Position numbers and translations under genes: made by a program. A stretch of 37,179 nucleotides of DNA, taken from the IMG/VR virus record IMGVR_UViG_2909303794_000005; one strand, written 5' to 3'. Source of the stretch: a virus. Lineage: Duplodnaviria > Heunggongvirae > Uroviricota > Caudoviricetes. Under the pieces are notes generated by a model. That model did no database searches, was not told where the DNA came from, and was given only the letters and a program-made list of their open reading frames with translations. Positions 8,525-12,200 of this stretch are shown one piece after another; the stretch's first letter is position 1, and every line of letters starts with the position of its first letter.

Positions 8525-8533
8525 AAATCACTG
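8525..8533. repeat. IS1 target-site duplication, left copy (AAATCACTG)
   Basis: Identical 9-mer directly abuts both IS1 termini. Confidence 0.9.
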
Positions 8534-8548
8534 GGTAATGACTCCAAC

Positions 8549-9052
8549 TTATTGATAGTGTTTTATGTTCAGATAATGCCCGATGACTTTGTCATGCAGC
8601 TCCACCGATTTTGAGAACGACAGCGACTTCCGTCCCAGCCGTGCCAGGTGCTGCCTCAGATTCAGGTTATGCCGCTCAATTCGCTGCGTATATCGCTTGC
8701 TGATTACGTGCAGCTTTCCCTTCAGGCGGGATTCATACAGCGGCCAGCCATCCGTCATCCATATCACCACGTCAAAGGGTGACAGCAGGCTCATAAGACG
8801 CCCCAGCGTCGCCATCGTGCGTTCACCGAATACGTGCGCAACAACCGTCTTCCGGAGCCTGTCATACGCGTAAAACAGCCAGCGCTGGCACGATTTAGCC
8901 CCGACATAGCCCCACTGTTCGTCCATTTCCGCGCAGACGATGACGTCACTGCCCGGCTGTATGCGCGAGGTTACCGACTGCGGCCTGAGTTTTTTAAGTG
9001 ACGTAAAATCGTGTTGAGGCCAACGCCCATAATGCGGGCTGTTGCCCGGCAT
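8549..9052 (-). CDS. insB: IS1 InsB (expressed as InsAB' transposase by -1 frameshift)
   Basis: Translation [16 protein letters not shown]...NIKHYQ is the canonical IS1 InsB sequence. Confidence 0.9.
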
Positions 9053-9246
9053 CCAACGCCATTCATGGCCATATCAATGATTTTCTGGTGCGTACCGGGT
9101 TGAGAAGCGGTGTAAGTGAACTGCAGTTGCCATGTTTTACGGCAGTGAGAGCAGAGATAGCGCTGATGTCCGGCGGTGCTTTTGCCGTTACGCACCACCC
9201 CGTCAGTAGCTGAACAGGAGGGACAGCTGATAGAAACAGAAGCCAC
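8971..9246 (-). CDS. insA: IS1 InsA
   Basis: Translation [42 protein letters not shown]... is canonical InsA (91 aa). Confidence 0.95.
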
Positions 9247-9279
9247 TGGAGCACCTCAAAAACACCATCATACACTAAA

Positions 9280-12200
9280 TCAGTAAGTTGGCAGCATCAC
9301 CAAATCACTGATCCATGTGCTAGGCGTCCAGTTGTTGATTGCGCTTGATTGCACTTCAAAGGTCAAGGTCACAGCACCTTTACCCGCTGGCATATCAATA
9401 ACACCTGAGTAAAGACCAGTATTACCGCCATACGCCCTATTATACAACTCTGACCCATTCTTACGAACAATCAGGCGACAAGTGTCGTAATAGGTATTAT
9501 TGTTCGACCCTTCACGCGCTCGCAATCCACCAAAACTAATCGCCGGAATAACGATTTGACGATCGAACTTGTGATCATCTTCAACGCGAACAGTGACCGT
9601 ACCCTGTGGATAACCAGCATAACCATTATCAACGTTAACATCACGATGCGGGAACTTACGTCCAATCACCTTAACGAAATCACCCTTAACCTGAGTAGCT
9701 TCAAGCATACCCTTAATAACACAGCTAGAGTTAATCGTGACGTTGTTCAGAGTACCAGAATCGGCAGTGATATTACCTTTAACGGTTGCATTCATGAACG
9801 TAGCGGACCCGTTCTTGTTGATATGCCATCCGGTCGATCCGTTCCAGTTGGAAGACTGGATATAGTTACCGATTTTAGCGTTATCAATTGCACCGTTTAC
9901 GATCTTCGCGTTAGTGATTGCCCCGTCCTGAATCTTCGCGCTGTTAATTGCAGCATTGCCGATTTTAGCCGTGGTAATCGCCGCATCATTAATCTGGGCT
10001 GTACCAATTGCAGCATTACGAATCATCGCATTATCGAGATAAACCTTGTTACCTTCGATACCAAACGGGCATACTTCCGATCCGTTCTGTGGAGCTACCG
10101 CGATTTTATCAGCATTAAAGATGATTCTCGTCGGTTGCGCCGGATCGTTGGTTGCGCTCATGTGAATACCAGCCACGCGACCATCTGCATTAACTGCCAG
10201 ATTATATTTGCTGTTAATGGTTCCTTTCAAAGCATCGATTTTTACATCTGCTTCCTGATTCACGCCAGCAATCTTGCCATCCATTTCTACCCGAACTTGA
10301 TCAATCTTGCTTGCGCTTGCTGCCTCACTGGTAGCAATTGCTTGTTTCAGGGTAGTAGCAGATGCGCTGACTTCGGATTTAATATCGCCTTTCAGTTCAG
10401 CTTTAACCTGATCAATCTTAGTGGAGCTAGCTTGCTCGCTGGTAGCAATCAGACTCTTTAAGGTATTGGCTGAGGCTTGGACCGTCTGCCCTGTTTCGGT
10501 AGTGATTTGCTTATGCATTGCATCAATTTTAGCATCGGCATTAGCACCAGCTTGAGCAATAGCATCCGCGATAGTTTCATCTAAGCGGTCTTGTAAACCA
10601 ATCAGGTCTTCCAGTGCTTCTTTGTCCTGATCGTCCCAGCTAATTGTAGATCTCATTTGCATGAAATAAGGTTCAGACCAAACAGCATCATCCATACCGA
10701 AAATATCGTAATGTGCCGCACGAAGATAATAATCACCATCAGCCAAATCAAAGGAAGTATGGCTAACACTATTCGTGCATACCGCCCTTGCATCGGAGAA
10801 AGTGTTATCGGTTGCATACTGGATGATTGACCCTGCATAGTCATGTTCTACGTCATCTGCCCAGCTAACAAACACACTATTAAAGCCACCACGCGCACTA
10901 AAACCTTTCATTGGCTTATGTTGTGGGTTGATAGCCACTAAACGCGCTGGGGCGCTCTCTGAGTTGTTATAGCCCTTAGCCGATACTTCTACCGTCAGTT
11001 GACGCGAAAGGCCGTTAAACTGGTTCATATCAAGCGTATAAGTCCATGATTCAGGATCGCGGGTACGGTACTGAATAGACTTACCAGCCTTGTTAGTCAC
11101 CTTGATAATGTATGCTTCAAACAGGTCACTAAACTTGTTAGTTTCACCGTTGATCTCAACATCTAAGCCTTGCTGGTTTTCCCATTCGATAATCAGATCA
11201 TTACCTTCGAAAGTTCCTGGCGTGCTACCCTGATTTTTGATTCGAATAACCGGAGTCGGCAATTCATAGGTAACAGTCGGATTCTGGTTAATCAGTTCTA
11301 CCCAATCGGATCGAGCGATGATACCGAAAGCACAAACTCGGTAATCATAAGAGCGATCTTTAGCCAGTGCGTTGACACTGAAAATTTGCTGTGAAGTCTG
11401 TCCCAGCTTAATCCAGTTAGGTGATCCGCTTACACGATAATCAATCTGGAAACCATAGCGGTTAAAATCTTCCGGTGCGTCCCATGTTAAAGTAACGTTT
11501 TTACCGTAAATCGTCTCACCAGTTGCCTTAATTCTGAAATTAGTCGGTTTCTGTACTGTCATTGAATCCGGTAAACCACTTGGTCGGTTATCTGGGTTAG
11601 CCGCATAGTTCAGGTCAGTATAAACCTGAGAATTATATTCTGTGGCGGTGATAGTCATCATCCCAGCAATACCAGAATCAATCGAGCGATCAATTGCAGT
11701 AATACGCCATAAGGAATTATTCAGCTTCAATTCATCATAGGTTACGCTGATAACGTCCCAAACTTCGGCAGTGAATGCGTCAGTAGTCATAAAGCTGATA
11801 ACCTGAGTGATACGAGATTTATTTCGTTCAATACTCGCAAGTTTATCAATCTGGGCTTTAGACTTAACAAAACGATATTCAATATCTTTAGCGATAATTC
11901 GACCATCTTGACGAATAGTAGCATCGTTTTCAGCATCAGCCGGATAACGTAGCATTTGCTCTGAATAGTCGATTGATGGTTCTTGATACATCGCGTTAAT
12001 GGTATTGAAATAACCGTTAGTGCCACCTGTTTTCAGTGATACCTTACCCATCATGATATTGTCTTCATTGAAGGTATGCTTAACAATATCAGGAGCATCC
12101 AGTTTCAGGGTAATTCTTCCAAAGGATTCGAACATCACCCCGCCGAAAGTCTGCATAAGATTAGTCAAGTTCTCTTTAAAGCTGGCGTTCGGATCACATG

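Follow-up and report, generated by a model that had tools for sequence, protein, structure and literature searches.

The window analysed here, 37,179 nucleotides (nt) of tailed-phage DNA recorded as IMG/VR virus record IMGVR_UViG_2909303794_000005, carries a complete copy of IS1A, an insertion sequence (IS) of Escherichia coli, in the 3' end of a gene for a tail-tip or central-fibre protein resembling the J protein (gpJ) of phage lambda. All 37,179 nt occur without a mismatch in the E. coli 14EC007 chromosome (NZ_CP024131.1, 2954259-2991437), and the two halves of ycdX, which encodes a zinc-binding phosphatase and has been split in two by integration, bound the prophage at 2953878-2954219 and 2991802-2992206 of that record. 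The prophage is about 37.6 kb in length and possesses a serine recombinase, terminase, portal, capsid, and tail genes, and an endolysin. A first-pass annotation of the window had treated the sequence as that of a phage; with the split ycdX on either side, it is not a free phage but a prophage resident in the 14EC007 chromosome.

The inserted element displays the features that define the IS1 family, namely the characteristic length, terminal inverted repeats, insA and insB' domains, an A6C site, and a 9-base pair (bp) target duplication. Two copies of AAATCACTG form a perfect 9-bp direct repeat bounding the element, whose terminal inverted repeats are imperfect, with 23-nt arms that are 78% complementary. 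Many E. coli genomes contain IS1A copies, annotated as "IS1-like element IS1A family transposase", to which it is 100% identical over all 768 bp, and a second, likewise 100% identical copy is located at 266782-267549 of the 14EC007 chromosome. The scores of insA and insB against PF03811, PF12759, and PF03400 are all far above the cut-offs. The insB' frame overlaps the end of insA, and its sequence predicts that InsAB' is made by way of a -1 frameshift; the RefSeq (PGAP) annotation has an intact InsAB', with a coding sequence (CDS) joined by programmed frameshift. A promoter-like site overlaps the left inverted repeat, the known place of the IS1 insA promoter. From its intact sequence and its identity to copies in the same genome, the IS1A copy in the J gene is apparently active. 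The first-pass annotation had described a complete 768-bp IS1, with insA and insB undamaged between its two inverted repeats and a perfect 9-bp duplication on either side, and had regarded it as a bona fide transposition; each of these features was reproduced, and the sequence duplicated here is present as a single AAATCACTG in the empty-site allele.

The insertion is positioned within the last 45 nt of the J gene. The truncated protein (accession WP_101972934.1) comprises 1243 native residues followed by VMLPTY, such that its end reads ...WISDLVMLPTY, and its new stop codon, TGA at 9280-9282, lies within the IS1 left inverted repeat. In silico removal of IS1 and one copy of the duplication restores a J protein of 1258 amino acids (aa) ending WISDLTVMVTKKATTGITVS, with a stop codon at 8476-8478. 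This restored frame, its stop, and the terminator that follows it had all been reported previously and were recovered exactly, and translation agrees that the 15 native C-terminal residues of J are exchanged for 6 IS-encoded ones. The truncated protein matches the Phage_Tail_Tip (PF09327, 3.4e-18) and Ig_GpJ_C (PF12421, 4e-28) families, the latter match reaching only profile position 122 of 135. The complete J C-terminus, consisting of the last strand and a KKAxTGIxVS tail, is lacking from the 14EC007 protein, although RefSeq treats the gene as intact, naming its product "phage tail tip domain-containing protein" with no truncation flag. Users of this annotation should be aware that J is presented as intact although it is a C-terminally truncated allele.

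Table 1. Positions of the insertion, the J gene, and neighbouring features in the 37,179-nt window.
Feature	Position	Strand	Remarks
Complete IS1A, 768 bp	8534-9301	-	oriented like the J gene
Target-site duplication, copy 1, AAATCACTG	8525-8533		
Target-site duplication, copy 2, AAATCACTG	9302-9310		
IS1 left inverted repeat, 23 nt	9279-9301	-	insA-proximal
IS1 right inverted repeat, 23 nt	8534-8556	-	
insA, 91 aa	8971-9246	-	zinc ribbon and helix-turn-helix; PF03811 1.3e-21, PF12759 4.7e-31
insB reading frame	8549-9052	-	DDE transposase domain DDE_Tnp_IS1; PF03400 2.9e-77
A6C -1 frameshift motif TTAAAAAACTC	8987-8997	-	IS position 305, in the insA/insB' overlap
Promoter-like site	9294-9267	-	overlaps IS1 left inverted repeat
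Truncated J-like tail-tip/central-fibre gene, 1249 aa	9280-13029	-	PF09327 and PF12421
Orphaned native J 3' end, codons TVMVTKKATTGITVS and stop 8476-8478	8476-8533	-	from the restored open reading frame
J::IS1 junction sequence, GCAGCATCACCAAATCACTGATCCATG			
Intrinsic-terminator hairpin with U-run, just past the native J stop	8419-8460	-	from folding
Five co-oriented downstream genes (92, 56, 227, 115, and 117 aa)	6470-8371	-	
Large serine recombinase, 559 aa	1295-2974		near one prophage end
Prophage body, first to last CDS	1-37179		integrated in ycdX of 14EC007

The distribution of the insertion was determined with an 800-bp query spanning the reconstructed pre-insertion site, which was searched against 5,426 complete E. 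coli genomes; chromosomes of this species served as comparators since no close cultured phage relative was found. The J locus is present in 55 of these genomes and is uninterrupted at the insertion site in 54, with 35 of them matching the full length of the query as a single piece. A match in two pieces spanning 800 + 777 bp was obtained for 14EC007 alone. In an alignment with strain VTB96775v, the latter has one AAATCACTG and both flanks are collinear with 14EC007. At the protein level, WP_101972934.1 is recorded on a single contig among 153 billion gene positions; its 90%-identity cluster contains 3,211 members, and those listed have either 1258 aa or native ends. The VMLPTY ending occurs in none of 120 J homologues, and the restored C-terminus is identical in the homologues P0003, P0054, P0065, and P0127. 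The insertion is private to one genome, and the pre-insertion allele survives in related prophages. Recurrent IS1 truncation had been suspected from nine homologues of 1249 aa; these have native C-termini and internal indels instead, as does P0125, a 1248-aa member of the cluster that had also been considered.

The collection holds no isogenic IS1-free twin of the prophage, the closest relative over 23.7 kb being about 94-95% identical. The middle region of J is mosaic: the best full-length homologue reaches only 92% identity, compared with 98% to other prophages for the 3' end and the DNA that follows it. Two further sequence type 301 (ST301) isolates come from the same study as 14EC007. Isolate 14EC017 (NZ_CP024134.1, 2562105-2562905) carries just a variant, 84.7% identical, in which the site is empty, and 14EC047 (NZ_CP024155.1) is not among the 55 matching genomes; all three strains are IS1-rich, with 33-40 places.

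Because the site is empty in 54 of 55 genomes, the truncated protein is confined to one assembly, and an identical IS1A copy resides in the same chromosome, the insertion is very probably a single recent, private, and intragenomic IS1A transposition into the last 45 nt of the lambda-J-like gene of the ycdX prophage in 14EC007. The suggestion of the first-pass annotation that the event was recent and host-acquired is borne out by the same observations, and the comparison with related genomes revealed no relative sharing this C-terminus but lacking IS1. The 14EC007 chromosome has IS1 at 34 places, compared with a median of 11 per genome, and we propose that one IS1A copy moved within this IS1-rich chromosome into the end of J, generating the 9-bp target duplication. 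The insertion deprives J of its conserved 15 C-terminal residues, comprising the last beta-strand of the immunoglobulin (Ig)-like receptor-binding domain and the KKAxTGIxVS tail, and supplies VMLPTY from the IS1 left inverted repeat. The altered J probably folds, trimerises, or triggers poorly, which would leave virions impaired or defective in adsorption or ejection. Damage of this kind would constitute an early step in prophage decay, probably neutral to the host, and the extra 777 bp should not block packaging.

The C-terminal segment affected by the insertion belongs to a structurally defined domain. The last ~179 residues of restored J match solved central-fibre receptor-binding domains up to their final residues, with E = 1.3e-52 for phage A8 gpJ (9wca) and about 1e-33 for lambda gpJ (8xcj, 8iyk). 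For the J receptor-binding domain (9280-9822) the nearest structure is the A8 gpJ-OmpC complex 9wcb, at 49-50% identity, and the identity to lambda gpJ bound to LamB is 40%. The native domain was modelled from a segment of P0065, whose last 200 aa match the restored allele exactly; the AlphaFold model has a mean predicted local distance difference test score (pLDDT) of 77 and template modelling scores of 0.70-0.71 to 9wcb, 9wca, 8xck, and 8xcj. Its final beta-strand is formed by residues 170-176 (LTVMVTK). Since the IS1 break falls after L170, at the start of this strand, the last beta-strand and the KKATTGITVS tail are removed. In an alignment of 10 sequences with 47-88% identity, V174, K176, K177, A178, T180, G181, and I182 are invariant, and among 46 unique domains, including those of lambda and A8, the frequency of the major residue is 0.84 over the last 15 positions and 0.75 over the rest of the domain. 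Leaving aside those annotated as partial, every homologue examined that has this kind of receptor-binding domain keeps the tail.

The likeness to characterised central fibres covers the C-terminal ~175 residues (E = 1e-34 to 1e-52) and extends to the C-terminal motif V-x-V-x-KK-x-x-x-GI-S/T-V, which restored J has in common with lambda gpJ and A8 gpJ (PDB 8XCK/8XCJ and 9WCA/9WCB), whereas the 14EC007 domain lacks the last strand and tail. A8, the nearest solved relative, uses OmpC as its receptor, and lambda uses LamB. The N-terminal 1000 residues of J, unlike those of lambda and A8 gpJ, belong to a different, uncharacterised prophage lineage.

Judged from the structural model and the conservation of the lost residues, the function of J is probably impaired by the loss of its C-terminal strand and tail. 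Several observations weigh against this reading. In the AlphaFold model of the truncated domain, LVMLPT occupies the slot of the lost strand (residues 170-175, pLDDT about 77), and mean pLDDT is 76.6, compared with 77.0 for the native model. The monomer model is itself of low confidence over the last five native residues (pLDDT 41), and conservation of the last 15 residues is moderate, ranking 50 of 165 windows. These residues are accordingly not claimed to be the most constrained part of the domain, the conservation signal being moderate rather than extreme. In the receptor-binding domain of lambda gpJ, an Ig-like module, bottom loops L1-L4 contact LamB (PMC11101478), and the equivalent loops of J lie upstream of the break and are intact. 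Finally, a side fibre of the gp37/gp38 type could keep up initial adsorption. Genes for a T4 gp37-like distal subunit of the long tail fibre (1146 aa, 19137-22577) and a gp38-like adhesin (168 aa, 17923-18429) separate the head genes from the tail-tube gene, and their products constitute a second receptor-binding system beside the J central fibre. Together with the absence of any other flagged pseudogene in the prophage and a gain of only 777 bp, about 2% of the genome, the modelled replacement strand and the intact loops would fit a functionally silent insertion, in which VMLPTY stands in for the last strand, J folds, trimerises, and binds, and the prophage remains infective with IS1 as cargo. 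We regard this as unlikely, for the lost KKAxTGIxVS tail is invariant or nearly so in homologues and kept in lambda and A8 gpJ, and no natural homologue without the tail was found among the 120 or among the cluster members listed. Moreover, residues with pLDDT of at least 90 are fewer in the truncated model (44) than in the native one (70), and AlphaFold models are insensitive to destabilisation and do not predict stability. The first-pass annotation had placed the insertion in the receptor-binding end of J; the domain does match gpJ receptor-binding domains, and a loss of binding is plausible. Very unlikely, in our estimate, is the stronger proposition that the IS1-bearing prophage is still inducible and infectious, with a J whose IS-encoded end is competent for assembly, an altered tip or gp37/gp38-type fibres in use, and IS1 spreading in a viable phage of changed host range.

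The chief effect of IS1 might instead be polar or regulatory, such that the element blocks or rewires late transcription of the endolysin cluster and disables lysis, a state that would then be selected as domestication. IS1 is classically polar, and it stands upstream of five co-oriented genes, the last of which, encoding 117 aa, is an M15 endolysin (phrog_894 1.7e-45, PF08291). The first-pass annotation had called these lysis-region genes and had suggested that their expression might be affected; the endolysin is the sole one of the five to be identified, and the argument from polarity is weak, since even without IS1 a strong intrinsic terminator stands between J and these genes. The hairpin has a 19-bp stem and dG of -24.1 kcal/mol (z = -5.54), and 0 of 200 shuffled sequences fold as well. 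Given this native terminator, the downstream genes need either a start of their own 3' of IS1 or transcription that resists terminators, neither of which should respond to IS1 polarity, and antiterminated polymerase, as in the classical lambda N and Q systems, overrides IS polarity too. On the minus strand, no sigma-70 promoter-like site was found at 8372-8560, neither one for the gene starting at 8371, between the terminator and that gene, nor an outward-reading or hybrid one at the right end of IS1; the first of these negatives speaks for a polar or regulatory effect, and the second against it. A single occurrence, furthermore, carries no signal of selection. Polarity of IS1 on the downstream genes is therefore probably minor, and we consider a chiefly polar or regulatory effect highly improbable. 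There is also the matter of whether an assembler misplaced an IS1 copy into J, the many identical copies in 14EC007 being a classic source of misassembly. This is scarcely credible: the 9-bp duplication is perfect and relatives have the sequence once, as transposition would leave it and a collapsed or chimeric join would not, and both flanks are collinear with the 54 empty-site genomes. The 14EC007 genome was closed by PacBio RS II and Illumina sequencing with 10-kb PacBio libraries (PMC6206212), and such reads easily span 768 bp. A single transposition of IS1A that probably compromises J is thus the reading we retain.

With respect to known systems, the element itself is identical to IS1A of E. 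coli (768 bp, 100%), and only its location is particular. IS elements in the lambdoid prophages of enterohaemorrhagic E. coli (EHEC) offer the nearest parallel. In Stx2a prophages the copy number and position of IS629 are the main source of variation within a type, and genes such as that for lysozyme are interrupted (PMC4587872); there, too, a host IS interrupts a late or structural prophage gene in strain-private variants. The present case differs from those of IS629 in that the element is IS1, the prophage is non-lambdoid outside the J receptor-binding domain, and only 15 codons are removed, the gene not being split midway. Among deposited phage genomes, IS1 is found in 20 of 50,697, most of these being entries of the P1 type or derived from prophages, and phages P1, SfIV, RCS47, and PPompW_EH2246 resemble the 14EC007 prophage in carrying IS1 inside a temperate phage genome. 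The IS1 of P1, present in all full-length P1 records matched, is annotated as an insertion sequence, and the match overlies no listed structural gene, whereas the 14EC007 copy truncates a receptor-binding protein and occurs in one genome only. The statement of the first-pass annotation that IS elements are uncommon in phage structural genes therefore holds for deposited phage genomes, but not for resident prophages, in which they are well documented (PMC4587872).

IS insertion into a resident E. coli prophage is a known class of event, and the one described here is mechanistically ordinary. Strain 14EC007 is an ST301 O180:H2 clinical isolate, positive for eae and mcr-1 (PMC6206212), and the insertion represents one concrete early step in the decay of a prophage residing in a pathogenic, IS-rich E. 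coli, with limited weight beyond annotation. Receptor-binding-domain mining or induction work would be better served by an IS1-free relative (VTB96775v or P0065) or by removal of the IS. If the phage proved viable, it would provide a small case study of how a phage can spread an IS and of the alteration that the J C-terminus tolerates.

The uncharacterised prophage family around J may be of greater interest than the insertion. It is represented in about 55-60 of the 5,426 complete E. coli genomes, chromosomal every time, and has no close cultured relative: a megablast search of 50,697 phage records with the 6 kb surrounding J returned IS1 as the sole match and no IS1-free phage reference. The capsid protein (667 aa, 24344-26347), one relative of which bears the annotation "major capsid protein and protease", shares no more than 45.6% identity with any phage record, the best being Escherichia phage DCP80, and its next relatives, at ~28-32%, are from siphophages of Achromobacter, Pseudomonas, Xanthomonas, and the Rhodobacter group. 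The edges of the window coincide exactly with CDS boundaries, which suggests that a gene-based prophage predictor excised it and that the attachment (att) junctions lie outside.

Downstream of J, the first product, of 92 aa, has an N-terminal transmembrane segment and, judged by eye, a C-terminal part that is polar and coiled-coil-like. Promoter-like sites number 7 in total, below the 8.3 expected from shuffling. The J terminator was missed by a consensus terminator scan, owing to a stem mismatch, and direct folding revealed the strong hairpin. Between the recombinase and the endolysin lies a variable cargo region (3048-6438) encoding a 428-aa hypothetical protein (-), a 189-aa protein, and a 499-aa DEAD/ResIII/UvsW_N helicase (+). 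PADLOC returned weak helicase-domain matches only for these genes (PbeA, type IV restriction endonuclease, and HamB helicase domains), and the related prophage in VTB96775v has other genes at this position; the region may be a hotspot for defence genes or morons. A perfect bidirectional terminator-like hairpin at 6443-6465 (AAAGCGCC...GGCGCTTT) separates the convergent helicase gene (+) from the endolysin cluster (-).

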